Shown: one piece after another, positions 22,019 to 64,000 of the stretch | How positions within the stretch are numbered: the stretch's first letter is position 1 | Layout of the letters: each line of letters opens with the position of its first letter | Source of the DNA: Podarcis cretensis | Lineage: Eukaryota | NCBI GenBank assembly: GCA_951804945.1 | Contig: OX638149.1 | Location: 74,834,001 to 74,898,000, forward strand | Direction: 5' to 3' | DNA: 64,000 nt | Position numbers and translations under genes: made by a program | The notes under the pieces: model-generated | What the model was told of the DNA's origin: nothing | Databases searched by the model: none | What the model saw: the letters and a program-made list of their open reading frames with translations, nothing else

Positions 22019-22134
22019 AGATGGTGCCAAATGATGTTCAGGCTGAGCTGAAACACTTGTATGTGGCACTAGGAGAGCTGTTACGACATTTTTGGTCCTG
22101 CTTTCCGGTTAATACACCATTCCTAGAAGAGAAG
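22019..22134 (+). CDS. GTF2H1: GTF2H1 coding exon 12
   Basis: [38 protein letters not shown]. Confidence 0.96.
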
Positions 22135-38974: not shown

Positions 38975-41673
38975 TCCAGATTATGTGGACGCACATGGTT
39001 CAGTGTAAGAGTTTGATTTTGTGAATTGGACTCAAGGCCTCATCTCACCTTTAAAGGCAGTATCATACCACTTCAAACAGTCATGGCTTATCTCAAATAA
39101 CTCAGGGAACCAGTTTATTAAAGCTGCTGTGAGTTGTTTGGAGACCCCTATTCTCACACAGCCACAACTCCCAGAGTGAAGGGAACTCTCAGAACTCAAA
39201 CTATGGTTCCTATGATTCTTTGGGGGAAGCCATGATTGCTTAAAGAGGCATGATACTTCTTTAAATGACTCCAGAAGTGTGCCACTGGTACCAAGTTCTA
39301 ATAATATTCCGCTTTTTGTCCTGTGTTTGGTCACAGGAACATGATTTACCAGCTTTCCCCTTCCTTCTTCCAACAGCTTGAATTTTGTAAATCTAGGTGC
39401 ATGTTAACCCCCCCCCCCGTGGCTTTCCTAGCATCACATATGCAGATTCCCTTTGACTTCAGCTTCTTCATCAGATACCACCCACATGCCCAGAGCCCTT
39501 TCATGTCAGAATGTGCCTTTGTGACCTTGGCCTCTACAGGGCAGTGGAATTAGGTTTCCATTTTGCTTGTTGAATTAGACATGCAAAAATTAGTAATCCT
39601 GTTTTGTTACACTCAGCATGACACATTTCTGCCTATAGAGATGTGTCTTTCAATTTCAGGAAAGGTATCTGATGCTGCAAAATTGCTGATCAGATGAAAA
39701 AAATTACAATTTCATTGGAATGATGTGGAGCTTAATGTACGTACTGCATATGAATCTTGCTTGTGCCTCACTCTGAACTGCACTGTTGTTAATTCACACT
39801 ATTATTGGCAACTAATAAGCAGCTGTTTTTAGTTTATGGGGAAGTTGCTAGGTCATTCACTTGCTACTGCTTCAGAAGTTGTGGTTTTGTTTTGTTGCAA
39901 AACTCGCTCATTGTCACAAATGTCTCCAAATACTTACTGATCACCAAACTGGAGTGCTGATGGTCACGGTGGAGAGAGAGTGCTTGCCTTGATTTGCTCT
40001 TTAACCACCAAGTGAACAGCTGCATATAGTAGCAACAAAAAGACCTACAGTAACTCTGATTCAATATATTCAGTAGGGACACTCAGTATTTCCACATTTG
40101 CAGTAGCATCATTTCTGCAAAGAGCATAACTGAGCAGAGTGCTGCATATCAGATGACACTAAAGTGATGCACCCAGGAGAGATCAGACTTTTTGGTTCCC
40201 CCCCCTTGCAGTTGTTCTACATGGGGCAGCTTTGAATGCAGGAATTGTCATAATTTTGGACTACAGGTGTATGGCTGACTATCCCATGAGCTTTGGAAGC
40301 CCATCTTTTAATGACTGGTTCTGAGATGTGTCATCCTAGCACCTTGCTGTCAGTGATCCAGAATCTACATTCCACATTCTTCTCTCACCAATATATCCCT
40401 TCAATGTGCCCTCCCTCCCCAGTCCTGTTGGGCATCCTTCCTCCTCTTCACCAGCCTTCTCCCACCAAGCAGATGTGCCTTTGTGCCATTACATTACACA
40501 CTTGCTTGCGCCATACTCCCTCCCCCAGTTTGGTTCACCAACTTTAAATTGAGATGGCAATGGCTTGTTGCTGATTTTGATTCAGAACTGCCTGACACTC
40601 TTAATTCCAAAGTTTAACATCATGAAATGCCCCTTCATTCCAGCAACACTGACCACTAATCTGCTATATTGACCCCTTTATTTTCACTTTTGTGCTCTTG
40701 CATTGGCAGGCATGCACCCCCACCCCTTGTTGGTACTACCCAAGTTTTTTATTTTCCTGACTTGCTACTAGCTTCTAGCTCTGGACTCTGGCCCAACATG
40801 ATATCCAGAATCAACCTTTGTCCTCCTGCGGATTTTCACCTGCCATGCTGCCAGTTTTCAGTCCAAGTCTCATTGTCTCTTGTCACCTACACCATTTCCA
40901 GAGCTGTTGTGGCCACAACATCAGAGTATGGCATAATATTTTATGGTTTTTATATACTGCCTAATATTTTATGGTTTTTATATGCTGTTCTCTCCCAAGA
41001 CAGCTTTTAACATTAAACAAAACAAAACATGCATATTTAAGAAATAAAATAAAAACTTTAAGACAAGCATATAGAACCAAGAGCAAAGTGTTTCACTACT
41101 TCCGAGTGAGTCAGTCGCATCTTTTAGTTCTCAATCACACCCTGGGTAGACTTTGTGCCTGAAAGCATACTGATCAAACAGACAAGATGTTTTGTTGCAC
41201 AATGCACTGAGCTTGCAAGATCCTTTGATAAGATACTGTGTGGTTTTGTGTTGCCTGTGTACATTAGCATTCCGCTTCTTGAAAACCTCTGTCTCTCACC
41301 TGCAATGACCCTGCCAAATTTTCTAATGTCTATTTGGGGGGGGGGGGAATGATACATATGTGCCAACAGTGGGTTGGATCCACACTAAAATTAGTTGATT
41401 GAACTTGGATCCCATGTAAATCAATGGGCAATTTACTCATGACTTTGTTCCCATTGTGAAAACAGAAGAATCTGCTAAAATTCAAATACTGCAATAACAA
41501 TTCAAGCAAAATCAAGGTTCTTGCAAATTTACAGAGTAAACTCTGGTGTGTGTATCTTAGTGATGGGATCCATATTTGAAATGGACTGTGTTAACTTATC
41601 ATCACAGCACAATTCAACAAGTGATGAAAATGAGTTGATTGTATTCTTATGTTTCCTCCCACAGAGCTACAAG

Positions 41674-41799
41674 ATGTCTCTCAAGGAAAAGCTGATTGAA
41701 AATGTTCACAAAGAGGAACACCCTCATGCCCACAACAAGATCACTGTGGTTGGGGTTGGTGCAGTTGGCATGGCTTGTGCCATAAGCATTTTGATGAAG
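41674..41799 (+). CDS. LDHA: LDHA coding exon 1
   Basis: [42 protein letters not shown] (Rossmann GxGxxG). Confidence 0.97.
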
Positions 41800-42267
41800 G
41801 TAGGTAAAATCTGTGTTTCGTGGGGCAAGATCTGTAGTCTTGCCTTTTTGTTTAGCAATATTTTTAGCTGTTTATATGCATTGCTGTGTTTTGAGGTTTT
41901 TCGTTGTTGTTCTTAACTGAATTTAATGTAAGTCACTTTGTGCTACTTTGTAAGAAAAGTGATGAACAAATACAATAATGCTAAATTTGTGTATTGCTAT
42001 GTCTTTCTGTAAAAATAAAATGTTCTATAAAGCACATGTAGAGGCGTTTCCATAGACAGTCAAGTATGTTTCAATAAACTCAGTTTGTGAATACAAATCC
42101 TAACAGTGCAGCCTATGCATGCCTATTCAGAAATAAGTCCATTGGCTTCAATGGGACATACTCCAAGATCAGTGTATATAAGATTGCACTGCACACCTCA
42201 GATCTGTGCAAAATATCAGCATAAGTTTACTGTAACCATGCGCTGAATTAATTTTGACCCTCCAGAC

Positions 42268-42591
42268 CAGGGGTCGGCAACGTGCGGCCCATGAAGACCA
42301 TTTTACTGGCCCACAAGCTACCCCCGAACCGAGCCGCCCACTTGGTGAATCCCCCGTGTGCTGTGCTAAACTGTGGGGACTTGCGCCTGAAATTGCGCCT
42401 GTGCACACGCAGACACTGGAAATTGCATCTGCGTGTGCCCAGACGCCGGAAATCGCTTGTGCGCAGGTGCAATTTTCGGCGTCTGGGCATGCGCAGATGC
42501 GATTTCCAGTGCCGTGCTGCGCCAGTCCAGCCCATGGATGATCTCTGTGGGAGTGATCCGGCCCATGGCCAGTAAACCTTGCTGACCCCTG
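42268..42591. mobile_element. Non-autonomous hAT element with internal ~30-bp repeats
   Basis: TIR caggggtcggcaa / ttgctgacccctg; TSD ctccagac / ctccaggc; internal units such as ggaaattgcatctgcgtgtgcccagac in both orientations. Confidence 0.85.
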
Positions 42592-42831
42592 CTCCAGGCC
42601 AAACATTCCCAACAGCCATGTATAGTGGTTTATCAGGAGCTCTACACAAGTTCCCTAGTTTTGCTGCCTGCTGGGGGCTGTTTATTTTTATTATTATCAA
42701 AGCCTTGGCAGGGCCTGTGGGCTGCAATTTGTCTTGGTGTATGTCTGCTTGTGCAGGCCTTCCCAGAACCATAAAATTCAGGTCTCTAAAAAAGCCAGTG
42801 GGTTGATCTATCTGTTCTTGGCTTTTTGTAG

Positions 42832-42951
<120 letters not shown>

Positions 42952-45278
42952 TAGTATTTCCCTGTCCTCTATGTACAGGCCATCTATTTCAGATGCTACA
43001 TAGCAAGGCAACATCCAGTAGTTTCTCTGAGAGGGAAGCCTCTGTGCCTCTGGAAGTAGAGGTGACTTCCCTTGCCTTAGGCAAGACCAAAGTTGTGGAA
43101 TGTCAGTCTTTAAAGAGCTTTCACTATGGCAATGATGACTTGAAGGCAGCTGGTTTAACCAGCAGCTGACCTGCACAGAATTATACAGACCGCATTGGAG
43201 AGTTGGTGTTGTGGATAAAGGGTGTTTTGTGTGGTTTAAGTTGCATTACTTTGAAAAGCAGCATGGTTTGATAAAGTTAGCAATGAGCATCAAACTTATG
43301 ATACCACAAGGATAGAAAAGGCTATTTATATGAACTAGGAATTTGGTCATCACTATTTCCTTCTGCTGGCTGAGGTGGCCTGCTCTTCTGTCCATTTCCC
43401 TCCCTACAAATGCTCACCCTTAGACAGGTCTGCTTGGCAGAACTTACAGCAAATATAAGGGAAGCCTGTTTTGGCTTCTTTAGGTGCAGCAAATACTATC
43501 AATAGGGGAGTGTTGAGAGAATGGATTATGGGTGCAGTCCTAAGATTCCTGGGAGGATGTCTTGGGGCCATAGAATAGGCAAGATCTACCCATTTGACAC
43601 CAGAGATTCAGAACCTCAACATTTGAGAGGTGTAGGTAGTTTTGGAGCATGCCTCCTCACTGCTGCAAGTATCTCCTAAGCCTAGCCCAACTGATATCAG
43701 AGCTATAATGTTGGTAGGGCCCCAGAGGAGGCCCCTGGAAGCAGCTAGGATACAGAATTCTCCTGGCCCTGCAAAGTGGGCAAAAGAATTAGTCACACTC
43801 TTGAGCACTCTGTTACTTCCAATGTGAGTGCCTTCAGTTTAGCACTGTAAATGAATTTACACTGGGTTTGTTATATTTTTAGGTTTGAACATATCAATGT
43901 TATCTGAGACAAGCAACAAATGAATCTTGACAAATATGCTGATAACTAAAACAAAAACAAAAAACCACACACAGAAGCAATAACAACTGGGTGTCTCCTT
44001 TTTGTTGAGTCCTCACTCCTAGTCCAAAATGAAGTATTGCAAGATTCCAAGCCAGTTCTTGCATGCTGTGGCCATTCTGCCATTGCTTCCAGTAGTATGT
44101 GAGGTTGTTAGACTCAGCCAGGCTGGAATTGCTCAGATGTTGTTTGTATGAAAAATGAATAGCCTGATTCCTCTAGTAGTGCTTGCTTGGGGTCAATAAG
44201 GCTTCTAAAGGATGGCAGGGAACCTGGGAACTCTGGTGTAGGGTCTCTTGTCACACTGATGGTGGCATCTAGGACAGCATCTCTCGGATCAGGCCAGGAA
44301 GAGATGAGAGGTGTAGAGAAGGGCATGTGAATTGACTTCCCTTAGTCTTTTTGCACTCCTTTAAAAAGTCATCATCTAGAGATGATGCCTGAACAAAAAA
44401 CCCTGGGAACAGGCTTTTCAGCCTTGGGAAGGTCTGCGACAGAGTAAGTTGACCAACTGGCCACAGTTCTAAGTGTAAGAGACCAGATACCAAGTAAATT
44501 GAATCCTTGTCAATCAAAAGCACAAAGCAGAGGAGCTACAGTGTATTGTTGCTTTTGCTAAAACTGCTGCTCTAAAACTGGCAGACAAGAGCTCTTCTTT
44601 GCTTCCTTTCCTGACCACAGTCCTTTGATAAAACTTCAAATAGCACTTAATGGCTTGGCAAACGGCACTTTTCCCCTGCTCCCAATGGTCAAATTGGAGA
44701 GCTTAGTCATGGTTTTCCCTTCCATTCTCTTTTCAGAGCAATACTCTCTGAAAACAGTAACTCCAGAAGGGGCCTGGGCTTTGCAGAAAAGTGTCTTGAT
44801 TTTTTTGTCTGATGTTTCTAAACAGGGTCTAATTGAAAGCAAAATTACATACATATATAACATTTAATCCTTTTTAAGGGAGAAGTAGCAGTAGAATTAT
44901 GATAGCAATAAGGGGTGTCTGAAGTCATAGCAGCTGCTCTTACCTCCAGATGAACAAAGGTGATTTAGTGCAAGCAGATATTTTACTGTTAGTTTCCAAA
45001 ACACTCTAAAAATAAGTTTCTAGCTCCGAAGCTAACACCTGGAAGAACACAGCCAGTTTCTTAGAGAGCAATCATTAGGACTTCAGGTTCTCTGAGGCAC
45101 AAATTCCCTTTATTCAGCTCATAAATCTGCCAGTGACCAGCCCTCAAAGGTGTCCTTCTCCTCCTGTGGGCCCAATTATTCCCCTCTTCCAGTTATGCTT
45201 TGTGCATTCAATTTGTCTGGAATTGTAAAATGCATTGTGAAATGTATCTTGAACAAACAAATGTGTTTATTTTTGCAG

Positions 45279-45452
45279 ACTATGCTGTGACTGCACACTC
45301 CAAGCTGGTCATCATCACTGCTGGAGCCCGCCAGCAAGAAGGCGAGTCTCGCCTTAACTTGGTTCAGCGCAACGTGAACATCTTCAAATTCATCATTCCC
45401 AGCATTGTCAAGTACAGTCCTGACTGCAAGCTGCTTGTTGTTTCAAATCCAG
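45279..45452 (+). CDS. LDHA: LDHA coding exon 3
   Basis: [57 protein letters not shown]. Confidence 0.97.
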
Positions 45453-47114
45453 GTTGGTTGTGTCCTGCTCTTAACTGCTTATGGACCATAATTCAACCTC
45501 CAGTCCTTTGAAAGGAGAAATTGCTTGCTTCCAAGAAGGAAATCGGGGAATCCTGAAAGCATTCCAAGTTTTCCCTTGGCCATGAAAAGGAAAATATCTA
45601 TTCCACCAGGACATCATGGTTTAACACTTAAGTTTAGATTCTGAAGTGGGACCTGCAATGAAATATCGTCCCATGGAGTGTTCCTGCTCAGGGTTCCATT
45701 CAGCCATGCCCTTTCCCAGAATACTCCATTCTCTTACCTTTTTCCATGTCCCCACCCTATCTACTCAGCAGCCAATCATCATTCCATGCCCACTGATGGC
45801 GCTGTCTTTCATTGGGCTGTTACAGGTCACACCCTCCCTTTTCTAAAGATTTCATGGACTTCTGGGTTCCATAAACTTGCTCATAACTCCTTTTTGAGTG
45901 TGGGTGGTGCTGTTTTGGCTATATAAGGATCTTCATTTGAAGAATTATTTTGCTATCTAGTATCTACGATGATTGGAACTATGGTGGTGACAATCGTGGC
46001 TAGGGTCTGCTAAGAGATCACATCATTCCACTGTCTCATGGGAAATACAGCAGTACTTCCATGTTTGATTGTTAGGGTGCAGTCTACAGGAAACGCCTAA
46101 CTTTTCCCCATGTAAAACGAGGTGCTTTGCCTAGTACCTAGCTAGTAGCTCATTTACACCATATTACTCTCTGTGCCAACGCACTTGGACACTCTTCTCT
46201 GATCTATTTACACAGTGGCTGCATTCAGATGCCCTGGTAAATCATGGTGGATGGACCATAGCTCAGTGTTGAAGTGTGTGTTCCTAACATAAGAAAGTTG
46301 AAGGTTCAAACCCTGACATCTCCAGATAGAACCAAGAAAGATTCCTTGGCAATGCCAAGCTGGATGGACCATGGCCCCAACTCTGTAAGGCAGCTCTTGA
46401 ATTCCTATGAGCCCTGGGGTCATGTTCCCACACCCAGCCCTTGTGGCTATGAGGTTGGAAGCTTTCCTTTTGATGGGTTCAGAAGAACAAATAAACTGTA
46501 GTTAATAAGGAAGTGAAGGCTTCCAAACTTATCCTCGGGGCTGGAGAAGATGGGAAGAGGTGCAAGCCCAAGGCTCTCCTAGTCTTGCTTCGACCCCAAT
46601 AAGCCATAGCTTACCATGATGTCTGGATGCAGAAGTTCAGGAAGTTAAACTAGAGACTTTGGCAGAAGGAAAGAGCTTTGGTTGCTCTGCTGGGTAAGAG
46701 CTTGTGGAGGTGTTGGGATACTTGTAAGATGCTATGTCCTGCTTCAGTCCTGTCTGCATGCCCTGAGTCTCTCCCTGAGTCCTCTGTAAGACACAGATAA
46801 TTCTGGAATGGTGCTGTTTAACTCACAGGGGACATCTACTAGGAAAGTCAGAACCATAGTACGAATCACTCTTGCCTGAGCACCTCATATTAAAATGAGA
46901 GGATTGTAAAGAAGCACCTCAATATTCCCTCTGCCCTTCAACTGCTGCCTGGAGCGAGGATGGTTTTGGCGTTTCATCATTAAGGTAGCCTTGTGTAGAA
47001 TAGGAGATGAAATTAAACAGCCTCTCTTTGTGGAGAAGGATTGCAGATTCCCAGTGTTCTCTAAGCTTGTCTGTCTTCAATAGTGCATATGACAATCACT
47101 TTCTAACCAAGTGA

Positions 47115-47318
<204 letters not shown>

Positions 47319-47474
47319 TAATCCATTTGCTACCCAACTCTCAAAGGAGACAGACTCTTGCATTCTGACTTCCTTCTTGGAAGATGGGGAGTGGGATTGG
47401 AATATACTGATGGTAACAGTACTTGGTGAAAAGGAGAGTAATAGAGCATTTCCCAGATCTACCTCTTGGAACGC

Positions 47475-47682
47475 AGAATCGTAGTTAGAAGGAACCTTTG
47501 AGTTAATGTAGGCTAGTCCCCTGCTTAATGCTGGATCCTCCAATGCATGGTGCATGTACAGCATCCCTGATAAAGAACCATCCATTGTCTACTTAAATGC
47601 CTGCAATGAAGGAGAGCCCATCGCCTCCGGAGGCAGTGTTCCATTGTTGAGGAATTCTTATCATTAGGAAGCATCTCCTAAC
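47475..47682 (-). mobile_element. CR1-like LINE 3' fragment
   Basis: gaaggagagccca...aggcagtgttccattgttga...aggaag pattern of reverse-oriented CR1 3' ends. Confidence 0.55.
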
Positions 47683-48875
47683 ACTGGGTTAGGTAACATA
47701 GTGTTCTCCAGATGTTGCTGAACTACAGCTCTTATGACTGACCATGATGGGCTGATGGGGAGTTGGAATCCAACAAATGACAGCTTTTTGGAAATTTGAA
47801 GACTGCTATAGAATTGTTGACCACATCAGACTTAGGTGCTGGGCAAGCCCACAGAGAGGTTTCCATACTCTTCCCTCTGTATGGAAGTTAGGAATATAAT
47901 CTAGCTGTCCCTACTGCATGAAGTAATACTAGATGGTCTATATTTGACTTGAGCAGTTCTGTTGCAAAAGGTCAGCTTTGTAATCCAAGTAGGCCATACC
48001 CTACCAGGCTAAATTCTACCCTTTACTCCTAACTGGGGAGTTCACAGTAAATCCTTTTCATGTCAGAGACCCTTGCATGCTGGTGTTCAGTAAAGCGGTT
48101 ACAAGTTATTTGTCTTGGCCCCTCTGTCATCCTATATTTGGGAGTTGTGTGATCTCATACAGCTCTGTACCAATACTGCCACTAGAATTCTTTGATGCAT
48201 AAACTCAGATTCTACACCACTACTCCTCTATCCCATCTCACAGCAGTGAATATAAACACAATCCCCTCTCCCCTCCCGAGTGCACTGTTCTGGGGTTTCT
48301 CTCCCTCTCCGACACCCCAAGCCAATTGGTGGTGGGGGGGGGGAGGTAGAGGGGAAAGCCACCGTGCACTAGCACAAGTCCTTGCACGAGCTTCCTTTAG
48401 CAGGCTTCATTACTTGAATCTGGCCCTCAGCTGTGTACTTTGCTGCTTGCTTGCCTTAGGTGAGCAGCTGCCGCCGCCACACTCCTCCTTGAATGACAGA
48501 TTATATGCAGTATATGGCTGCCAAGTCTTTCTTCTGCCCCAAGGGCTATGGACCATTTTAGGAAGATATGTGTGCATAGCCACAGCAGGATGAAAACTCA
48601 CCCTTTTCCCTGGGTTTATGAGTTAAAAGGAACAGGTCAGTGGCTAATCCAACATGGATGAGCACAAGGATCCATCTCCACTGCCTGTTAGCCAAAGTTT
48701 AAGGGGAAGGTATGTGTGCATAGCAAGATTCTTAGTAATTATAAAACTGTACTTGGTACATCATGCTACATTAACTGCCCAGCTCAGATCTGTGCGAAAC
48801 ACTTGTGAATCTTAGTTTCTGTGAAGTTGGAAAACATTCTAGATTGCTCAGAAAAATCTTCTGCATTTTATTCAG

Positions 48876-48993
48876 TGCCTGTCTGGAGTGGCGTGAATGT
48901 TGCTGGCGTCTCTTTGAAAACTTTGCATCCAGACATGGGGTCTGATAGTGACAAGGAGAACTGGAAGGAAGTCCACAAGCACGTGGTAGAAAG
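48876..48993 (+). CDS. LDHA: LDHA coding exon 5
   Basis: [38 protein letters not shown]. Confidence 0.96.
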
Positions 48994-49993
48994 GTAATCT
49001 TTATCTCGTCTCTGTGTGAGACAGGAAATGGGGTTCCACTGAGCTTCCAGAAATTGCCTGTGTCTCATTTTCAAGGATGCCACAGCCTACATTGCTTCAA
49101 CGAGGTCCCCTGATCCTTAATAGAGCATTTTTGCCTCATGACATGCACTTAACTTTGGACCAAACCCCTTCATTTCCCCACAATATAATCTCCAGTTGTC
49201 AAGTTTTTAAGAAATATTGATTTAGATTGCTGTTTATAGTGCCAGATTACTGAAGAGTGCTTTTCCAGTATTGGAAACCACTGTTCAGCAGTTAATTTCC
49301 CTTTGTTGATAGATACTATATAGCAATCACTATATTCTGCACTGTGGAATTTGAATGTGTTTTGAAAGCAAAATAAAGTAAATTGTGCATACATTTCACA
49401 TTCCTGAAGGACTGATCCATTTACAAACTGCCCTGGTTCATGTAACATGCTAGGTAATAGTTAATGTTAATGTTTAACTATCATGAAATGTGAATTAGCA
49501 GCTTGTTAGTGTAGGCGTTCAAAAATGCAGATTGCTTCTCCCTCATTCTTGCTACATGCAACAACCACAAGCTGTGGCTTGTTGTGCCATATAATCTGAA
49601 CCCTGGTTTGCCTATTTCCAAACCAACCATTGTCTAACTTTGCTTAGACAATGTGACAAGCCAAGGCTGATAGCTTCTCCCCTTGCCCCCATCCCCAAAT
49701 GGTGTGGCCAGGAAGGGAGAAGGAACAAACAAAGCAAGGGCTTTGAGATTGCTGCTCATTTGTATTTAATGTTTAAATATTAACTATGGCTTGAAAAAAA
49801 TGTGCAAGCAAAGCCACTCCATGCAGGCACCAACATCTCTACAGGGGAAGGCTAGTAGCTTGCTTGTAAAAATAATAAATTAATTGATCTAATGCCTGCA
49901 ACAGATGCCGTTTGAAGATAGAGGATAAGTAGCCTCAGATGGACTTCACCTGAAGTATAGATTGACAGCTATGATGTTGCTTAATAGACATGA

Positions 49994-50236
<243 letters not shown>

Positions 50237-50418
50237 TAGTCAAGCTAACAGAGGCAGTAGCTGCCAAAGTAAATGAGTTTGCTTTAAATAAGGAACAGAT
50301 CTCCCTGTGTAAGGATGGCGCTTTCTCCCCCTTCCCACTAATGGGGAAAGCGTTTATTACATGCAAATCAAAACATTATTTAATTGGCTTAAGTCTTTCT
50401 TTTTACTGTTCTTTCTAG

Positions 50419-50583
50419 GGCATGCATGGAATTAAAGATGACGTCTTCCTTAGTGTTCCTTGTGTCCTGGGCTACTCAGGAATTACCGACGTGGTGAAAA
50501 TGACCCTGAAGAGCGAAGAGGAAGACAAGTTGAGGAAGAGTGCAGATACACTCTGGGGGATCCAGAAGGAACTTCAGTTTTAA
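50419..50583 (+). CDS. LDHA: LDHA last coding exon
   Basis: [54 protein letters not shown]. Confidence 0.97.
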
Positions 50584-52042: not shown

Positions 52043-52132
52043 TCAGTAGAGATCACTGAGTCCTGCCGTTTTTCTTGCTTTCTGCATGAGTGCCCGCAGC
52101 TGAAACTGCTTGCGAGACAAGAGGCGGACGTG
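52043..52132 (-). CDS. TSG101: TSG101 last exon (steadiness box end)
   Basis: HVRLLSRKQFQLRALMQKARKTAGLSDLY*. Confidence 0.97.
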   Translation of the reverse strand, partial: HVRLLSRKQFQLRALMQKARKTAGLSDLY

Positions 52133-52286
52133 CTGAAAAGAAAAAACAGGCCAGGGTAAATCATCTGAGCATGATCCAACAGAAGTTATAACATTTTAAT
52201 TTGATCAACTTCAATGGGACATCTTTGTAATAAAAGAATATTTAGGTCCAGATTTTGAATTTAAAGACAAGTTGAAAAGTAAGATA

Positions 52287-52518
52287 CAGTGGTGCTCCGC
52301 AAGATGAATGCATCGCAAGACGAAAAACTCGCTAGACGAAAGGGTTTTCCGTCTTTTGAGGTGCTTCGCAAAACGAAACGTTTTGCGAGTTCTTGCGAGT
52401 TTTTTTCCTTTTTTTCCTTTTTCTAAGCCGCTAATAGCCGCTAAGCTGCTAATAGCCGTGCTCCGCAAGACGAAGAGACTCGCGGAACGAATTAATTTCG
52501 TCTTGCGAGGCACCACTG
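52287..52518. mobile_element. Tc1/mariner-type MITE
   Basis: TA|cagtggtgctccgcaaga ... tcttgcgaggcaccactg|TA. Confidence 0.85.
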
Positions 52519-52637
52519 TACCATTTTTATTGGCATTTTCTCTTTGACTGTATGTCCCAATAATTTCAATGGTGTAAATTTTGACATTTTTAGATTCTTA
52601 TAAAATAACTTTGTGTAATGGTGCATGTAACATATAC

Positions 52638-52773
52638 CAGTGTTTCTCAAACTTGGGTCCCCAGCTGTTGTTGGACTACAACTCCCATAATCCCTGATAA
52701 CTGGTACTGCTAGCTAGGGATGATGGGAATTGTAGTCCAACAACAGCTGAAGACCAAAGCTTCAGGAACCGTT
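52638..52773. mobile_element. Palindromic ~135-bp hAT-like MITE (degenerate right end)
   Basis: Same family core as 31437. Confidence 0.75.
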
Positions 52774-53225
52774 TACTAGACACATGCAGTCACCCACACA
52801 ATATCTTGAATCAGCCAAAATGGGAAAAGGTAAAGAGGGCATTTGGTTGGCCATACAGCTACAAGCACATCCTCAAGACCCAAAAGCTGAAACTGATCCC
52901 ACAAAACCTGACCAGACAGTGTATTAAATGCTTCACTCAGACCTGTTACAACAAGAATATATACACAGTGGTCCAACTCATCATGGGAAGACAGGTTATT
53001 CTGTTCTACAGGCTTATATCTTCCTGGCTGTCCGGTGTGTAAGGTTCTAAACTACAGTTTTGATGATGTGTGAGAGAGATAACCATCCAATGCACTTGAA
53101 AAACCCTCCCCTCTTCTCTACATTTGAAGAGGCATTAGAGTTAAGAATTAGGAACACAACTATTGGTTTCAGTGGACCAGAAAAACTGTACATGAACGTA
53201 CCTTTGAATATTTACTCAAACCTAC

Positions 53226-53465
53226 CTTTAGAAAGATATCAAGATCAATAACTCCACGTCTCAATGCTTCACCCAGGTAAAAGATGGTATCTTCAATGGC
53301 ATTTTCCTCAGCATACAAGTTCAGAATTTGTTTGTAAAGTGGCGCTGTAGGAACAATAACTTCGTCTATGTCATTATTTTCTGACTGACTCTCCATTTTT
53401 TCCAAGGCAGAACTCAGCTCTTCATCTTTCTTTTTCAGGAGGTCAATGTTCTTGTCAACTTCAGC
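53226..53465 (-). CDS. TSG101: TSG101 exon 9
   Basis: AEVDKNIDLLKKKDEELSSALEKMESQSENNDIDEVIVPTAPLYKQIL...DLDIFLK. Confidence 0.97.
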
Positions 53466-54392
53466 CTAAAAAAACAAAACAAAACAAAAAGGTTTGTTTT
53501 AAGATGCTGTGATACCTATTTAATCAACACTCTAAATTCTCTTTTAAAGTCCATGGAAGGGAGTCCCAGGTACCACAGGAAAGAGGTTTCCCTCCTGCCC
53601 TCAAACACCTCCCATGGCATGTGAAGAAATTACTCCCCCACTGCTCTGAGGGCAATAATGGCAAAAGAGGTTTCTGCCTGGGGAAATTTGGGACCCACTG
53701 AATCCCAAACTCTCCTGTTCCCATAACATACCTCTGGAACGGGGGGGGGGGGAGGGGGGCAGTACATGGTCCTGAAGATGGTGTACTCAGTTTCCCGTCC
53801 TTTTGGCACTAGACGGGAAAATGTGGCGGTAGGCAGAGTGGGCAAAGGACAGGGTAGTTGCAAAAGAAAAAAAACCAGGATGGGTGCTACAACACCACCT
53901 TTTGCCCTGCCAGCGTAAGGCCGGCAGGACTTTGGGTGTGGCAGTTTCTTTGCCTCAGTAGGATTGCTCCGTAAGACTTTAAGAGTATTTATGTATGAGA
54001 ACAGCATTTAACTGCTTATTTGGATGTTCTCAAAATTTCACCATTACTGTGCTATCGACCTTGTAAATAACCATAGACACAGGACAAATAATTGTAATGT
54101 CTCTGCAGTTTTAAGACCACTATCCTCACCTGCAAATAATGAATCAGTGGTGAGGAATAGATGGCTAGAAAGAAAAGGGCTACATTTTTCATTGCCTTAC
54201 CTACCACACAATGGATGCCAAGAGCTACAGGCAACAGAATCTACTGCAAGGAAGGAAATGTTCCAGCTGCTTTGAGCAACGAAAAAGGCTTCGTTGTTGT
54301 TTGAAAAGACATGGGAAGTCATGAGCCCAATGCTTTTAATTGCTTAAAAGGAAAAAAAACAAGGTATATGGCAAGCCTTTTCGTTTGCTTAC

Positions 54393-54595
54393 CACTTCCT
54401 GGTCTAGGCGAGTTACCATCTCCTCAAGCTTTTGGTGACCTTTTTTCAAGTCTTCCTCTGTGCGCTTCAAGGCATTGAGCTCTGCCTGGGCACGGTCCAT
54501 TTCTTCTTTCATTCTCCATCTCAACTTATCACTGACTGCTGAAATAAGCGAAGCTCGAATGGTATCTTCGCTAATGGTGCCATCTCTGCTGGGAC
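54393..54595 (-). CDS. TSG101: TSG101 exon 8 (coiled coil)
   Basis: PSRDGTISEDTIRASLISAVSDKLRWRMKEEMDRAQAELNALKRTEEDLKKGHQKLEEMVTRLDQEV. Confidence 0.97.
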
Positions 54596-57500
54596 CTGTA
54601 CAATAAGATTCAGTCACAGAATCAACCCCTTCTACTTCTGAGGAGATTTGTAGGTCATGACAATCTGTTTGGCAAAGGTATTTGAGGCTAAAAAAACTAG
54701 AATATGTTAAAACAGATTAATTTTCAGACATAACATTCCAAAAGGTGTACCCATGAACTTCTAAGTTGCTTAATAATCTATTGTACTTTCCCAACTTAAG
54801 GAGGTTCTGCCCATCTTCTCACAGAGTGCAACTGTGAACTTGAACCAGCAAATATTTTAAAAGCAACCATAGAGCTTTCAAGTGTTAGCTAACTAACACA
54901 TTAGCTAACTATCACAATGAAAAAACATCGTCCTTGAACACAGGTTTAGCTCTCAGCCACTCAAACTTTACTTTAGATACACCCCCAAATTCAAAATGTT
55001 TTAATGAAAACACAGAATGCTTCTGTCAGATTACTAGCTCTGGTTATTGCTTGAGGAGCACTGAGTTGAGCTACAAACAATGAAACACTAGTTTATTTTT
55101 TATACAAATATTTCTTTTGCTTTTGCATCAACCATCATATAAAATATCTACAGTCATTTTTTTATCACCAAGTTCACATGAAACCCCAAATGTTTGCCAT
55201 GCACAAGATGGTCTTTCCTTATTAAAACCTTTCCTTCCAAACACTCACATCCAGAAATTCACATTGCACATTCAAATCTACAAGTTTTTCACTTGTCTCC
55301 TCACAGACAACACTGTCTGAAGAGTTTCCTTACATTGAGGACTTGAAATTTTATAAAAATGAATGCCCTGTCTTAATCACTACCGTTACTAATCTACAAA
55401 TATATTTTAAGAAAGTATTCAATAAACTGTAGGTTCCAAACATCACAATTATATCAAACCTAGCAAGAATTAGCAACAGCACTCTAGTATAAAAATTGTA
55501 TTTTACCTTAACACACCAACTCAAAGAGCCCCACAGGTTTCATATGCAGCTTGAATTTGCCGCCATCCATGTGTTCTCTTAACATTAAAACTCTTCTTCT
55601 TACAGTCTCTTTCACAATTATCAGTCCATTCTTTTTGCTTTTGAGGTGTTCCCACTGCCCCAAATAGCACTTAGTATGTAGAAAGTATGGTATGGGTCCA
55701 TCCCAGCAGTTTCCTGAACAGCCCACCTGCAGCAATTTTGTCCACTCAGCAAAAGTAAGCAAAGTACGGAAAACGTCTGTTCATGCTGTCCTTTCTGAAT
55801 CCGCTCTGTCTTGCTGCTGCTTCATTCACACTGGGGGATCTTCATGCCAAAACAACTTTATGGAATCACAGTCTCTGATTGGAATTTCCGACTCCAGACT
55901 CGGGATTTCACTTTATGAGGATACATTGTTAATTCATTTTCAGTATTTCATTCTTCCTGCTTTCATTTTCTTTTCGTTAAATGGATATAAGCTTCTTATC
56001 TTCAGAAAAAAATTAATGACGGATGAGTATCACAATTTCATTTCTTCAATGCTTTTAAAGTCCAATTACCAATTTCAGTGAACACCAGATTATTTTTATT
56101 TGCTCTCATTTCCATTCTTGTCTTGGGTTCATGTCCAACAAAGTTCAAAGTCTGACGCTAATGTCCGTTATGTTGATCATTGCTCCCTAAAGTCTTTCTG
56201 CTCTTCTCTTGAGTATGGATAGGCGTGGTATCATATGTAAGGAACACTGAAAACTGGTGTCAGATGAATAAACCCTTCTGCATAACAAATGTTGAGCAAT
56301 TTAAACCAAAAATTATTTGAACACAAAACATTATTACAGCTCAGAGTTCTGCACATTGCTGATTCTAAACATTTGCGTACCATCTGAGTTCCCCCCCATG
56401 AAGCTTTTATCCCCAAAACAAAACAAAAACACCTCTCCAAACATTGGCATTATTAATTTTATATTATATTAAAAGTATAATAATAATAATACAGATTTTA
56501 ATAAGACATTCTTATGGGATAAGGGGCCCCAAAACATCCTGGAAAATCTCCACATACCAACACCTCCAAAAATGCTTCTCACCTTTACATAATTACTGGT
56601 ATTTAACTTTTAACAGTTTCAACTTGAATTATATGCATATTTCTGAAGAATGAACAGGCATACAGAGTTATGCTGATACATGCTGCTAGATGCATACAAT
56701 TTGTAAGGCGAGTTCAAATAAAGACATCAAAACTCATGTTAACAAATTCCCGCAGGTTCCAAAATTACAGCTTTTAACTAGACAAACATAGGAGTGTAAC
56801 TTAAGTGACCTAAGCAAATATGTTTATGTACATCAAAAGATGTAACCCTCTAATCCCTCTCAACTGATTTAAGAATTCATCAAAGTTTGCCTTTAAAAGA
56901 TTAAGACCAGACTAGCTATGTGGCAGGACAAATGAAAACAAGTATTCTGGCAGACTTAAGGTAGGTTTGCAGTGATGTCAGCATGTGATTGTCTGCACTG
57001 CCAAATTCCAAGGAAGCCTGGTAGATTGGGCAGATGAAAATGTGTAGAGCCCATTTCCATAACATAGTGATAATAAAAGCTTTTGACAGGTGATTTGTAT
57101 TATTTGGGAGCTATACAGCACCAAATGCCTGAAGACTACTTTTCATATTTTGCCCCCTTATCCATCAAGTAAAAACACTTACACTTGCTCCTAATAATAA
57201 CAGCAAGGGCTACTTTTGGTTGAATTTGAAGTACCATGTCAAATCACTAAAGAGGTTTTCTTAAGTGTCTTTCCCATTCACCCTGTGTTGCATATTCCTG
57301 TACCTGAAGACAGCTGCACGCAAGGGTTTACTGCAGAAATTGGTCCTAAATTGCAACATGTTGCATCGTTTTCTTCTGAATGATCTAGATAACAGTTTCA
57401 ACAAAATAAATGAAGGTTCTGTTCTGAAACTATCCATTTCTGTGTTTTCCGTACCAAGTTTTATCTTCTTCTACTACTGTCTAGACTTGTCCTGTTTAAA

Positions 57501-60500
57501 ACGAATTATTCAGAGTAAGAAAATCATGAAGGCAGTTTCAAAAAGTAACTTAACCTTATTTTGCTAATCCCCTGCTTCAGAAACTGTATTAAAATTGGAC
57601 AACAGCAAAAAAAAGAGAAAACCTCAAAAAAGAAAAACCTGAACAAAACAAACAAATCACTTGGCTCAACTGAGTAAGTTATTCAGAAGTAGACCCATTT
57701 AGATCAATGGACTTAAGCCCACTTATTTCAGTGGGTCTACTCAATGCTAATTTAGGATTATCAGCCTATATGGTCATCCAGAAAATGATCTTGAAAAAGC
57801 CAGCAAAACAAAATCCTATTCAAGTGCTAGACCCATATTTCCACCTCTCTCTGCCCCAGGTTTCTTTCCACCATAAGCATATATCATATAAACATATCTT
57901 AGAACCAGTTACGACTTTTTGGTCAAAGCTGTTTATTTATGAAGCTTTTGTCTAGAGCTTAAATAAAGTCAGAGAAATAAGTCTGCATGTACAAATATAT
58001 GGTTTTAGATGTACAGAGAATAAGACAGGCTACCACCATATACCAATTCATACCAGGAGCACTTGATTTGAAGAGCACCTTCAAGAACATGAACCCTTAA
58101 CATTTTCAATCACTTCCATAATTAGCCACCCTTAGAGAAGAGTTACTGGCATGCAGCCATACGTCCAAGGGAAAACTCAGACATTTAACCTTTGCTATAC
58201 AGAGTCTAGTTTCAGAGCTGACCTTATGGTACTGACCTTACAGTACTGCAGACTAGCAGTTGACTCAGACAGAAAAGAAACAGCCAAATATCAACTTGGC
58301 AATGGAAGAAACTGATGTTTATTTTAATTTAATAATGATGACTATATATCACCACCACCAGGACAATGTGAACTGTAGCATAAACAAAGTAATAATGGTG
58401 TATTCCTCAATTATTAACTAGAAAAGAATTTTAATTATCTTTTCAGTTGACTTTTCAGGAGGGGTATGATGTCAAACAAAATATTAACACTGAAAGATGG
58501 AAGTGCAAGATTAAACAGACTAAATTGCTTTAGCTGTATCAGAACTGTCAGAGTAGACAGTCCATTTAAAAGGATTAATACATTGTGGAAGTCCATCAGC
58601 TGGGGGCCCTATAACCAGTTTGAATGACTTCCAGAAAATACTGCCTTACTAGGCCTCTGTTTAGTTGAACTTCAGGTAAGGCATTTCTTCAGATAAGGTA
58701 GTAACCTCCACCCCCACCCCACAAATTAAGTACCTTAAGATTAACACCGCCATAAACCCTTAACATGCAGCTTATATTCTTGAGCAAAAAATGCATTCTC
58801 ATGCTGATAATGGTCACCAATTACTGGTAGCAACAGCACTTGAAAGTTTTGCTTTAATAAAATTATGAGTAGTAGTAGCTTACTTAAACACACTATTTTT
58901 ATACAACCTAAATATAGCTGAGGAAAGTATCACCATTTCTGGTGATGTTTGACTGAATCAAGAAGTGTTTCAACAAGTACAATTAGCAACCCAAAGAACA
59001 TCTTTCCTCAATCATCTTTATAAAAATAATTCACATCATTCAGTACTAAGTGTTCACTAACAAAGAATGTAAGGACTAAGAAATAAATACTAGTATTTTA
59101 TTGTTAGAACACAAATCTCCAAGTTATACAAATTAGATGGATCAAACAGCATTGCCCAACATCAAAAAGGTAGAAAAGATAGGCCCAGATCCATACTGGA
59201 ACTTAACGTCCCTACTACAAGCAAGTATTCAAAATGAAGGCTATAGTCAGTTGTAAGCACCAGTAAGCGCCTGCCATGTCCTTAAGGGAATGAGCTGGAC
59301 CGCACTACAAACATGTAGAATTCTGCTCCTGTCCCTCCCAAAGGCTATATAGTTCTCCCCCAATCTAGTGGGAAATTTCCAGAGTGGTATGCAAAGAGAG
59401 GTTATGTAAAAAAATATAAATGTAATCCAAGCATTCATCTTAAACTGCAGTAAAGTTCAATTCTAGTCTGCTACATTCTATTCCTGTTGCCCTTGCATTC
59501 CAGAATCACATTTGTGCTACATTTTAGCTTCCAATATCAACCTACAAGACTGCTATCATATTTGGAAGTACTGACCATTTAAAACCACAATACCAACAAA
59601 TCCAGAATTTGTCTGGATATTGACCTGATTTCAGAGAAGCTGTGAAGGTGAAGGAAGCCACTGAAGTTAAGCTCTCTCTTGTTTGTGAAAGGCACATTAC
59701 ATCATAAAAGCAATTTACATAATATGTGCTACCGAAACACTGAAGGATATTGTCTCATGTGGCTTCAATCACAACCAACTCTCCTTAAGAATAATCAAGT
59801 TCACGGCAGGGTTCTTTTAAAATAAAAAAAGCATATGCTGCCCTGTAATTTGTTTCCTAGTAAATACTAACGGTGATTGCGAAAAATGGTCGTTCTATTA
59901 GATTATATTTTAAAAGCAAATTCTGATGCAAATGATCTGCCTTTTTTCCAGGAAAGGTGACACAGTAATGCCAAAGCAAAACATGGCAAAACTGTCATAC
60001 AGTCACTTTCAGACAGTTCAACAAGCTTCAAGGTAACCAGAATATGTACCTTCACACAGTTTTAACAAGTGCCATAATAGCTTTGAGCAGTCATGATCTT
60101 TTGCAATGAATGTCTTGCAGAGTAACATTTAAAACTTTCAGCGTCTAAAACTTATATAGGATTTTGGATGTGACATTCCTGGTTGAATAAGCCATGAAGG
60201 AGCATCTGGTGCAAGTATCTGGTGTTTATGCTGGTTTTAGTACTTTGAGCCCAGGCTCTTTAACTCAGTTTCCCATTATGTCTGAAATTGGGAGCACTGG
60301 TTTAATGTTGATTTACTAACCAGCATCTGAAATCTGATTTGCAAACTTGTATTAAACCTCAATTCCCCATTTCAGAGGAAAGTGACTTAAAAGCAGCTTG
60401 GGCTGAACCTGGCACACATGGGGAGGCAGGAATAAGCTTGATGCTTATTCTTGCTTAATGAACTATGGTTTATTAAGAATTTTACCTCTGAGCCTGCCAT

Positions 60501-61072
60501 ATGTTAATAAACACTCATGAAGCATAAGTGATTAACATATAACTAGAGTAATATGTGAGTCCATGTATAATGAACCACTAATGCTTCAGTTTGTTTTCCT
60601 GCTCTAGTCAGACTCACCTTTTCCAAAGTTACATATTTTTTATGATGTTTTTTCTGATCTACCCACATAAAATAGCTTTGTAAGCTATTACTGCACCCAT
60701 ATTTTAGGTAGCTATCACCTCGTGCTATTCACTGAGCATTTTTCGGATGGGAATATCAATCAGGGAAACTAAACTGCTCGGCAGTGTCTCTAAGCACACT
60801 GAAGAAGCAAACTGAATTCAGTGGGGTGGGGAAGTAAACAGAATTTTAAAAAACAGTTAAATATATCGGCAAATGTCTTACTGCAGTGGTTGCAGAACAA
60901 TGCCACTAGCAATTACATTACTAAATTAATACCCACCACCATATTAACAGTGCAATTCCACTGCCTGAAAATTTAAATTACCACCGTTCACAACCTTCTA
61001 ATAATCTCTGTCTGTAGAGACCTTCCCTACTTGCTTAAACTGAAATGTATTATTCCTTCTCCAAAGAAACAG

Positions 61073-61650
61073 TTAGATCAAAGTCTCTAAAACACTTAAT
61101 AAATCCAGGTTGAAGACATCTGTGCCACTTTCAGACAAGAGAACACCATCTAGATGGAACAATCCTGGAGATTCTGGGACAAGTGAATCGTGTTTGATTA
61201 TAATCCCTCCAATACGTTCCATAAAACTGCCGATTTCCCGATTTACTCTCTTCCTGCTTTTCTCCATAAATTCATGGGACATATCTTGGCTCCATGCTTT
61301 GCGGGGTACAATATTAGACCAGACAAGGATGCTGTTCTTGAATGTTATCTTAATATGTATTATATCTTTCTTCATTTGTCTTATGATATCATAATCTGCG
61401 TATGTCCCAAGGTCATTTCCTCCTAGATGGACCACCAATATATCAGGATCTGTTAGACGCCGCCGTGTGCGCAATAGGCTGGGTATCAACTGATCCCACG
61501 TCATGCCACTCTTTCCTAGCCAATGTAGTTTGGCATCCTCCAGTCGAATGCCCAACTGTGGGCCAAAGCTTCTTTCAAGTGCTCTTTTTTCTGCCCAGAA
61601 AACGTAAGAATGACCACATATCCATACCTGTTTCTGCTTTCTTCTGCCAT
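61073..61650 (-). CDS. Intronic SGNH/GDSL hydrolase-like exon (Ngaro/DIRS-type hydrolase-like), putative alternative terminal exon of TSG101
   Basis: Uninterrupted 192-codon frame with SGNH blocks VWICGHSY (I), GKSGM (II), VHLGGNDL (III), DGVLLS (V, His replaced). Preceded by tgtttgttctcttaatagcag acceptor in phase 1, matching TSG101 exon 7. Confidence 0.8.
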
Positions 61651-63719
61651 CTGCTATTAAGAGAACAAACATACATTAATGCTTCATAAATTTTGTGGCC
61701 CAAGCACCTCCTGAAAACTTTATTCAGTGTTGTCTGAATTATTCCATGTAAAAATCAAAACATGAGACACCTCTATCTTAAAATACATGGCATAATAATC
61801 CATAAAGTCAACTCTTTATTTGAAGATTGGTGTGTAAAGTTTACAGGTAAAAATGCCTGTATGCAAGTTATAAGATCAATGGAAAGGAATGCATGCTCAT
61901 GTACCCTTTTGATCAATCTTACAAGAGCAAGTGAAAATATCTTTTCTAAATAAAGTTGCTAACAAACCATTTAGATCTTGATAAAGTATATAGGTTTGAT
62001 AGATGTGCTCTACTCAGAATGAAGTTCTTCCAGATTTTTCCCCAAAATTAACAAAAGGTCAGGAGCAGAAGTCCATACCTTTCAAGCAGACCAAGAGAAA
62101 GCTTCGACTGTTAAGAAAGCCCAGGGAGCAGAGTTATACTTCTCTATTAAATCTTATGTAGAAATTTATGTAACCATTTCCACGCTTTGCCTGACAGGAT
62201 TAATTTTTGTTGCCACATCACACCTCCATTTCTAAAAATTCATTTTCTGAACAAAACGCTAGAAAGCTTGCACTAGGGATAGATTTTCTATTACTGCCCT
62301 GAAAGAATAGTAATTTGATCTCTTCTAAACAATGTAGACCTCCAGTATTAAACTACAGAAAATTATCAGTTTTACATTTTCCCTGCAATTTTCAACTTGT
62401 TTTTGTTTATGAAGTCTTTTCCTGACATGCAATCCAGTCAATTTTATAATTGTAAAAATGGTTTTATTGTTTTTAGAGTTTGCATCTTTTGTATTTGATC
62501 TTATTGTACATAGCTTCAATAGCATATGGCTCTGAAGCAGTCCATAGACCTGTAAAATAACAATAACGATAATAGTAATAGCTCAACAAAAGTGATGATA
62601 ATTTTTGGAGTTCAAATATATTATATGTGACATTGGACAAGAAAATAGTGGATGATGATGTGGCCAGGGATCTTGCAGTCTTTGTGCTAAATAATAATGT
62701 GCTTTCTAAATTATACTCTTTTGAGGGTTTCAAGTTTTTGCTTATCACTAGAGGCAACAATACGTTCAGATTCTTAGGACTTCTCTCCTGAGCAGGTCTG
62801 GTAGTTCTGGGCTAAGCAGTAAAACAGGTGAGCAAGCTTTTCAGCACCCAAGAATTACACTGAATGTGAAACAGAAGAAAGCTGTTGATTGGCACCTTTA
62901 GCTTACAGATCAACAAACTTCACAAGATGAAGATCTGGTGATGGTAGCTGGGCTACTTCATGAACGGCACTTCTACACTTGCATCACACACAAAAAGAGT
63001 GGGGGAAAATTGCAGTTTGGGAGTGTACTGGAAAACACGATGGAGTCAAGGATAGCTTGGTTCGCTTCCAGTTAAGGACGGAACTCAACTGTATTTTCAG
63101 TGCTGACTCGACAACAATCAAGGCTTCTTCACATCATCCTTAGGTACTGTTCTCCATCCTTGGCTGACATAGCAAAAGGCTTGTAAATAGGCTGTAGTAC
63201 TGCATCTTGGCTGCAGTTACTCCACACTGGCTACAGCCTCTTCATTCTTGTGCCCAAATGATGCTGCTGTTCAAGTTCCTGGTACATTCAGTGGTGTGAT
63301 CAAATGAAACCCACCCCTTTCTCATCATTGAAAAGTTCATGACTACAAGATCATTCCCCCAGTTAATAAGAACATAATAAATATGTAGGCTTAAAAAAAA
63401 AAAGAGGCTTCGGGCTTTAATTTATCTTGGACCTGCAAACATAATATTTTCAAACACAAGTGAACTTCATTACATAAAACAGTTCAATAAAAAAGAAGTT
63501 TGTTGAACAGTGAAAAGAGTTAATGATTGTTCCATCAATCAAACAATGGAGAAAAAAATGAACATCTAGCATGGTTAAAGTGTAATGTAACTGATGTTTT
63601 TGCCACGAGGCACTTAATGCCCATCTCAGAAATAGGTGTATTTGGATTTGCTTTATGCTGTATATTTAGAATGAGCAATCTCATTACATTCGGAAAAAGA
63701 CACTTTCAAAGCTACTCAC

Positions 63720-63817
63720 CCACAGTAGTTACAGGAGGCTGAGAAGGGTAGTGTTGTGTGCTAGTTGTTGGTGGAAATGATCCGCTAGGGGGAGGGTAAG
63801 GATAGCTTGGGTAACCA
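63720..63817 (-). CDS. TSG101: TSG101 exon 7 (proline-rich region; ends in phase 1)
   Basis: tttcaag|TGGTTAC...ACTGTGG|gtgagt; GYPSYPYPPPSGSFPPTTSTQHYPSQPPVTTV. Confidence 0.94.
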
Positions 63818-64000
63818 CTTGAAAGGGGAGGGGGAGAAAGACACAGTGTTATGCATTCTTTAGTTAATATTTCCATTCATAAGCAATTTTTTTTTTACAT
63901 TTAAACAATTTATAATAGACAAACAGAATTTCAAAAAGAGCCACTGATGCAGATATAAACGGTCAGAGTAATATTCAAGACCATGAGAAATTTGTTGTCA

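Follow-up and report, generated by a model that had tools for sequence, protein, structure and literature searches.

Several described systems bear a likeness to the exon reported here. In Lyosin, an exon derived from LINE-1 ORF1 is joined to MYL4, such that a retrotransposon ORF has been exapted to supply one of a host gene's alternative coding exons; it dates to Paleozoic amniotes, was first spotted among RefSeq isoforms, and has been lost in some lineages (PMC12129022). The donor in that case is a LINE-1 ORF1p, the exon is N-terminal and the distribution is confined to sauropsids, whereas the TSG101 exon is also found in mammals; the Lyosin screen covered LINE ORF1ps only, and the main text and searched supplements of that report mention neither TSG101 nor DIRS elements (PMC12129022). 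TSG101 is likewise absent from the main text and searched supplements of PMC9004415. Ngaro-like elements carry, in order, a reverse transcriptase (RT), a tyrosine recombinase and an SGNH ORF, the last described as without proven function (PMC9210276). The same placement of an SGNH frame after a tyrosine recombinase is seen at relatives of the domain in the Podarcis genome, but the TSG101 site differs from these elements in that it has no RT, recombinase or split repeats, is single copy, and has lost the catalytic His.

A second retrotransposon SGNH domain, the esterase of the ZfL2-1 ORF1p (4C1B), provides the best sequence match of the family profile in the PDB; it is LINE-derived, catalytically active with an intact S/D/H triad, and undomesticated (PMC3905857). 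On the host side, TSG-5′ and retroCHMP3 are ESCRT components in which the binding half is kept and the assembly or recycling half is lost (PMC3766686, 10.1101/2020.08.30.273656); TSG-5′ is engineered and retroCHMP3 is a truncated retrocopy, whereas native TSG101 would swap its C-terminal half, by splicing, for a folded domain of foreign origin, and inhibition is hypothetical here. The OSK domain of the insect protein Oskar (5A4A) also has an SGNH fold with an incomplete triad, but is missing the nucleophile Ser as well and is an RNA binder (PMC10792757). The TSG101-SGNH isoform is a host-transposon fusion exon, neither a canonical SGNH esterase nor an ESCRT-I subunit, and its unusual donor and essential host gene set it apart among exons of this kind. 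We found no published description of it in a search that did not extend to subscription journals or bioRxiv supplements; public annotation names the fusion plainly, as TSG101 isoform X1 or X2.

Exon frame and splice sites in TSG101 intron 7

The window, 64,000 nucleotides of Podarcis cretensis DNA (contig OX638149.1), carries TSG101 exons 7 to 10 (Table 1), with exons 1–6 in the adjoining DNA, 2–11 kb past its end. An earlier note on this DNA had reported a frame with SGNH blocks on the TSG101 strand of intron 7, and we confirm it: counted from the acceptor it comprises 191 full codons and a split first codon, with the blocks GHSY, GKSG, HLGGND and LFHLDGVLLS in order. It is not the longest ORF in the window, as had been claimed, but the second-longest stop-to-stop, the longest being a 204-aa frame at 42248–42862 (−) for which a Pfam search gave no match.

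Table 1. Coordinates, within the window, of the features of the TSG101 intron 7 locus.
Feature	Position	Strand	Remark
Stop-to-stop SGNH frame	61073-61675	−	200 aa
TSG101 exon 7, end of proline-rich region (...SQPPVTTV + G)	63720..63817	−	
Exon 7 donor GTGAGT, phase 1	63714-63719	−	exon edge 63720, ...ACTGTGG/GTGAGT
Pyrimidine-rich tract and tandem TAG/CAG (NAGNAG) acceptor of the predicted alternative exon	61651..61672	−	
Letters TAG CAG of the tandem acceptor	61651-61656	−	
Predicted alternative last exon, coding part, Ngaro-type SGNH-fold domain	61073..61653	−	stop TAA 61073-61075
Candidate polyadenylation signal AATAAA	60469..60474	−	~600 nt past stop
Further candidate polyadenylation signal ATTAAA	60301	−	
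Further candidate polyadenylation signal AATAAA	59097	−	
Further candidate polyadenylation signal ATTAAA	58853	−	
TSG101 exons 8-10 (coiled coil, internal PTAP, Vps23 core / steadiness box)	52043..54595	−	
Block I Ser14 (Ser232 of the 409-aa isoform), nucleophile position	61607..61609	−	kept
Block III Asn78, oxyanion-hole position	61415..61417	−	kept
Block V: His165, Asp167, and Leu170 at the catalytic His position	61139..61156	−	

The phase-1 donor of exon 7 had been proposed to join the SGNH exon in frame, and it does so with either AG of the tandem acceptor, giving VTTV-AD-GRRK (61653) or VTTV-D-GRRK (61650) and an isoform of 408 or 409 aa according to the NAGNAG choice. The exon had been described as starting right after a pyrimidine tract and AG; the gene models use both AGs, the upstream TAG more often (AD in 67 records, D in 25 and one irregular junction). 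In squamates, turtles, echidna and marsupials, annotation lists the two forms as distinct isoforms; to our knowledge, RefSeq lists isoforms differing by 3 nt only where RNA-seq introns support both. Conservation of the acceptor tract is sufficient for it to be read as MF[VI]LLIAD (13 unnamed records) or FLCVLLIAD (one crocodilian-like record). The minus-strand AATAAA that had been pointed out downstream is present and is one of four such candidates.

Pfam places the Vps23_core match on exons 9 and 10, with the internal PTAP in exon 9, and finds UEV and GDSL as the sole domains of a fusion record (P0170), with no Vps23 core; the expectation that the fusion keeps the UEV and drops the core is borne out. 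The canonical exon-8 acceptor (~54595–54640, −) has a purine-rich, weak-looking tract compared with that of the SGNH exon, which could favor use of the alternative exon. Elsewhere in the window, a lactate dehydrogenase gene (41479–50560, +; Ldh_1_N at 45137–45508) lies tail to tail with TSG101, and an exon at 21862–22203 (+), which gave no Pfam match, is one that we take to resemble GTF2H1; the placement of the two fits the gene order GTF2H1-LDHA-TSG101.

Fusion gene models across amniotes

A UEV-SGNH isoform of roughly 400 aa had been predicted, and it corresponds to TSG101 isoforms of 406–411 aa annotated across amniotes, including those of three Podarcis species in which the SGNH part is 98–99% identical to that in the window. 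By hand count of cluster lists, one of which names 15 of its 18 members, exon 7 is joined to the SGNH exon in at least 60 named species of six amniote groups: at least 31 squamates, 16 turtles, 3 crocodilians, 6 marsupials, 1 echidna and 3 afrotherians (two manatees and a tenrec). The frame is kept at the orthologous site in these distant amniotes. A search of longer proteins returned 25 matches, 23 of them 71–99% identical over the domain, and 22 of those 23 have a UEV.

Among 111 ortholog records, a redundant set representing 60 distinct domains, 93 include the end of exon 7, and 91 of these stop at the SGNH C-terminus, the other two being ‘hypothetical’ models that run on into exon 8. The GPPx3Y motif, which binds CEP55, is kept in 91 of the 93, and P[TS]AP is confined to the two that read into exon 8. 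The splice evidence consists of predicted gene models (XP_, GenBank and UniRef records), some of the UniRef entries stemming from a second pipeline (Ensembl); because protein collections contain intact copies only, the intactness of the copies is partly built in. A search for sequencing runs over 60400–63900 listed 22, none recorded as RNA, which bears neither way on expression.

Not every model joins the exon to TSG101. Another first exon is given to it in Carettochelys (LOC142014737), Mauremys mutica (LOC123368998) and Naja (KAG8125728.1), and members of the SGNH family are attached to other genes in a single species or genus, namely Rhinatrema SPRYD4 X2, Gekko japonicus DUSP12 X1, a Hyperolius nuclear factor 7-like RING model and an Erythrolamprus ZNF318-like model. 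These last would reflect either repeated exonization or annotation noise, and since the family is found on unrelated genes in single-lineage models, one gene model on its own means little. We note also that four Alligator sinensis models (P0188, P0233–P0235) read through from UEVLD to TSG101 to the SGNH exon; these are probably merged neighboring genes.

Word-based searches of annotated proteins, one of which collapses relatives at 50% identity, gave no bird, boreoeutherian, xenarthran, amphibian or tuatara record of the exon; a further search, of 435–2000 aa, lay above the size of the 408-aa fusions and does not bear on this. Within the reach of such searches, these absences suggest loss of the exon. 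An unnamed 217-aa record (P0132) shares 61% identity with the manatee form across 135 residues and diverges from it at both ends; it looks like a decayed copy of the mammalian type, and hints at pseudogenization in some mammals.

Domain fold and active site

Modeling confirms the predicted SGNH fold of the exon product. In sequence comparison, the Pfam Lipase_GDSL_2 profile matches at E 1.7e-4 with a score of 22.6, below its gathering threshold of 32.9, and a single-sequence phmmer search of the PDB gave a chance match only, while a search of the PDB with the family profile found 4C1B at E 1.3e-8. The AF2 model of the domain, built from a 49-row alignment, has a pLDDT of 95.9; Foldseek matches it to 3P94 (E 1.2e-7), and it aligns with the SGNH hydrolase 4RW0 at Z 19.3 (rmsd 2.5 over 172 residues) and with OSK (5A4A) at Z 16.6 (rmsd 3.0 over 162 residues, 16% identity). 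SGNH-type clusters are also among the ESM Atlas matches. The AF2 model of the full-length fusion (34-row alignment) has a mean pLDDT of 46.9 and is uninformative on contacts between UEV and SGNH domain. A motif scan of the SGNH part found no PTAP, PPxY or YPxL motif.

The description of the exon as an SGNH hydrolase holds for the fold but probably not for an active hydrolase. The nucleophile position is Ser14 in 108 of the 111 ortholog records (the other three have gaps), Asn78 is present in all 111 and Gly45 in 110; the catalytic His position, in contrast, is Leu in 110, with one gap. The other relatives have His there in 191 of 226 cases (53/56 in fish, 15/18 in the Podarcis genome and 123/152 elsewhere). 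This is the position written ‘x’ in the block DGVxLS of the earlier note, where the substitution was overlooked; the family profile DgVhLs aligns to DGLHPS of 4C1B, whose triad is S143/D279/H282 (PMC3905857). The acid position, 167, is Asp in 79 and Asn in 31 of the 111 orthologs. Because the catalytic His is Leu in the orthologs and is retained in most other relatives, the TSG101 domain is probably a pseudo-esterase, and loss of the His would be new here. A further ortholog-specific residue is His165, found in 110 of 111 orthologs as against ~1% His in other relatives, which might serve in a rebuilt active site. Its pI of 9.4 makes the domain basic, with a median net charge of +6 among orthologs compared with +8 to +10 for element copies, and this lower basicity provides no argument for stronger membrane binding.

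Evidence for a Ngaro-type origin

Searching the Podarcis genome with the domain protein gave one full match among 150 scored of 1288 candidates, the other 149 being 27–35% identical to the domain, and a DNA search with positions 60400–62200 recovered only the self-match. The possibility that the exon is a recent multi-copy transposon fragment is rejected, as it is single copy, its relatives are at most 35% identical, and its frame is kept in distant amniotes.

The arrangement at these relatives nonetheless points to a tyrosine-recombinase retrotransposon. A recombinase match lies within the 3.5-kb locus at 17 of the 19 best own-genome relatives; one locus (L027) has RVT_1, a weak Phage_int_SAM_4 and GDSL frames in order, two others (L023 and L026) have Phage_integrase followed by GDSL, and in one of eight long loci (L025) the element ORFs are flanked by an 84-nt direct repeat. 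This recombinase-SGNH layout supports the proposed Ngaro-type origin of the domain. In the tree, the sister group that would mark the position of the donor family is weakly supported (SH-aLRT 43).

The TSG101 site itself is not an intact Ngaro element. That RT, recombinase and terminal repeats are lacking nearby had been noted by eye and is upheld by tblastn of 54600–63720 with eight element ORFs as queries, which found no RT or tyrosine-recombinase remnant (the best non-SGNH match, E 0.017, falls inside the SGNH frame, and none outside it is below E 0.3), and by a repeat search of 54700–63700, which detected neither direct nor inverted repeats of at least 40 nt.

Two of the genomic relatives deserve separate mention. 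The best-scoring one (L002, 35% identical), near 36.64 Mb on C2 (L021:4757–5368, −), has no recombinase match in its 3.5-kb locus and reads CGNS in block I; it may be another domesticated or orphan copy. At C9:2103000–2112900 (L028), three SGNH frames lie on one strand within ~6.3 kb, forming a local cluster.

Conservation and phylogeny

We judged selection from protein-level proxies, namely identity and tree length. In 34 records, the mean SGNH identity of squamates to turtles is 0.76, to marsupials 0.75, to echidna 0.74, to crocodilians 0.71 and to afrotherians 0.69, where the proline-rich region (PRR) is not far above, at 0.77–0.82, and the UEV is at 0.87–0.93; the corresponding tree lengths are 2.41 for SGNH, 2.02 for PRR and 0.86 for UEV. 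Change within the domain is uneven, with tree lengths of 1.46 for the N-block, 4.51 for the middle and 1.35 for the C-block. The 60 distinct ortholog domains agree at 67 of 191 positions, most of which lie within or next to the four active-site blocks, and the 34 aligned records have just four indels, each of a single residue.

A tree of 82 rows (15 orthologs, 9 named fish proteins, 9 of 18 own-genome frames and 49 others, with P0132 excluded) places the 15 TSG101 orthologs in one clade (FastTree 0.999; IQ-TREE -fast SH-aLRT 99.9) on a long stem of 0.45–0.58; branching within it is weakly supported and follows the species tree only in part. Because the exon occurs in both sauropsids and mammals, its distribution would date the capture to before their split, ~320 million years ago. 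That this is a protein-coding fusion isoform maintained by selection we consider highly probable, and if it is, then a pseudo-enzyme is likely.

Proposed role of the isoform and alternatives

The scheme that we favor begins with insertion of a Ngaro-type retrotransposon into TSG101 intron 7 before the sauropsid-mammal split, after which the rest of the element would have decayed and the SGNH ORF been exapted as an alternative last exon. Exon 7 would be spliced to one AG or the other of the acceptor pair and the transcript polyadenylated within the intron, yielding the 408/409-aa protein. This would consist of the UEV, which binds ubiquitin and PTAP/PSAP, the proline-rich region with GPPx3Y, and the SGNH domain, which replaces the coiled coil, internal PTAP and steadiness box. 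TSG101 needs its Vps23 core to assemble into ESCRT-I, and with core and stalk both missing the isoform should be unable to enter ESCRT-I; it would also be expected to escape steadiness-box turnover. The roles of the coiled coil, PTAP and steadiness box are summarized in PMC7073217, a review in which mouse and human TSG101 splice variants are described as minor and mostly non-functional; those variants differ from the SGNH isoform and come from species where the exon was not found.

With the nucleophile, oxyanion pocket and basic charge kept and the His gone, the SGNH domain would most likely bind acidic phospholipids or an acyl group but not turn them over. The ZfL2-1 esterase still binds acidic phospholipids and liposomes when its active site is mutated, and it did not bind oligo-A RNA (PMC3905857); lipid binding by the TSG101 domain is an analogy borrowed from this distant LINE esterase. 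The isoform may then act as a membrane-tethered adaptor that keeps ubiquitinated or PTAP-bearing clients from ESCRT-I, with sorting and budding damped or rerouted in tissues that splice it. We prefer this reading because the engineered N-terminal fragment TSG-5′ blocks the Gag-TSG101 interaction (PMC3766686) and the ZfL2-1 esterase binds lipids independently of its active site; as a whole it is tentative, though favored over the five alternatives below, the first three of which likewise take the fusion protein to be under selection.

The isoform could instead be kept as a restriction factor against retroelements or enveloped viruses, with the UEV occupying PTAP late domains while bringing in no ESCRT-I, and the SGNH domain perhaps docking on Ngaro particles as well, making this a natural TSG-5′, similar to retroCHMP3. 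The architecture is that of the TSG-5′ fragment, which is inhibitory (PMC3766686), retroCHMP3 shows that truncation can turn an ESCRT protein into an inhibitor of budding (10.1101/2020.08.30.273656), and ESCRT is used by LINE retrotransposition (PMC5478143). The Podarcis genome is rich in Ngaro elements whose SGNH frames are open (150 scored of 1288 candidates), and the middle third of the domain changes fast (4.51 as against ~1.4). Most of the domain is nevertheless slow-evolving, unlike an arms-race surface, identity to living elements of at most 35% makes co-assembly doubtful, and truncation alone would suffice for a decoy without a conserved folded domain. We regard this explanation as unlikely.

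Also unlikely, in our estimation, is an active enzyme with a rebuilt center, which would retain Ser14, the oxyanion Gly and Asn78 and use His165 or His13 as base, the UEV directing a deacylase to ubiquitinated cargo or endosomal lipids. Near-invariance of Ser14, Asn78 and His165 in the orthologs (108, 111 and 110 of 111) speaks for it, and replacement of Asp167 by Asn need not be fatal, since a main-chain oxygen serves as acid in some SGNH proteins (PMC10792757). Against it, Leu stands at the canonical His position in 110 of 111 records and Asn at that of the acid in 31; His165 lies five residues ahead of the canonical His and occupies a site where relatives mostly have Arg.

An RNA-binding pseudo-hydrolase like OSK, linking ubiquitin or PTAP clients to RNA granules, strikes us as improbable. 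OSK, a non-enzyme RNA binder (PMC10792757), does match the fold at Z 16.6, the domain has a pI of 9.4 and an RRKQK start, and a fish gene couples the SGNH family to cold-shock domains. OSK is nonetheless only 26th in the fold ranking, below ordinary esterases, the orthologs are less basic than element copies, and the ZfL2-1 esterase does not bind oligo-A RNA (PMC3905857).

That the exon belongs to a nested stand-alone gene with its own start in intron 7, its joining to TSG101 being minor read-through, is very improbable. The three named models with other first exons could be taken this way, as could an in-frame ATG at 61672 in squamates, giving 199-aa ORFs; but the three alternative N-termini are mutually dissimilar, the turtle stand-alone first exon matches nothing in Podarcis intron 7, the ATG sits in the acceptor tract and is missing from the crocodilian-like record P0007, and the exon-7 end is present in 93 of 111 ortholog records. 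Single-lineage SGNH exons in other gene models might suggest a purely regulatory exon, lowering full-length TSG101 through intronic polyadenylation, or a neutral relic with annotation noise, which is scarcely credible against ~70–76% amino acid identity across amniotes with four single-residue indels in 34 records, block-wise conservation, a fixed ortholog-specific motif and a single copy.

Other possible SGNH captures and wider implications

The ray-finned fish gene si:dkeyp-121d4.3, present from gar to teleosts, encodes CSDE1-like cold-shock domains, an SR-rich stretch and a C-terminal SGNH domain that is ~37–46% identical to the TSG101 domain, has the catalytic His in 53 of 56 records, and forms its own clade. 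We take it for an apparent second domestication that took place independently; common descent with the TSG101 exon, which the 37–46% identity might suggest, is unsupported, as the two fall in separate clades of the tree. Unnamed proteins of 1,200–3,100 aa (P0021, P0022 and P0027–P0030), with two to seven SGNH stretches each and grouping as one clade, are possibly a third domesticated family, of tandem-repeat type.

A broader evolutionary picture, which is speculative and to which we give only a modest chance, is that TSG101 has had two states since early amniotes, an ESCRT-I subunit and an ESCRT decoy, the captured domain having been disarmed once on the stem and then fixed, tethering the decoy to membranes or retroelement particles and blocking PTAP-dependent budding; the decoy would then have been lost in birds and most placentals, with si:dkeyp-121d4.3 a second, independent capture. 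The family also offers a handle on what the Ngaro SGNH ORF does, as hosts have apparently kept the domain at least twice, and the two cases differ, the TSG101 exon being without the catalytic His and the ray-finned fish gene having it. TSG101 is an essential and heavily studied gene, and a conserved isoform that exchanges its ESCRT-I assembly half for a domain of transposon origin would give the gene an inbuilt regulator of sorting and budding, one to which work centered on human and mouse would be blind if those species have lost the exon.
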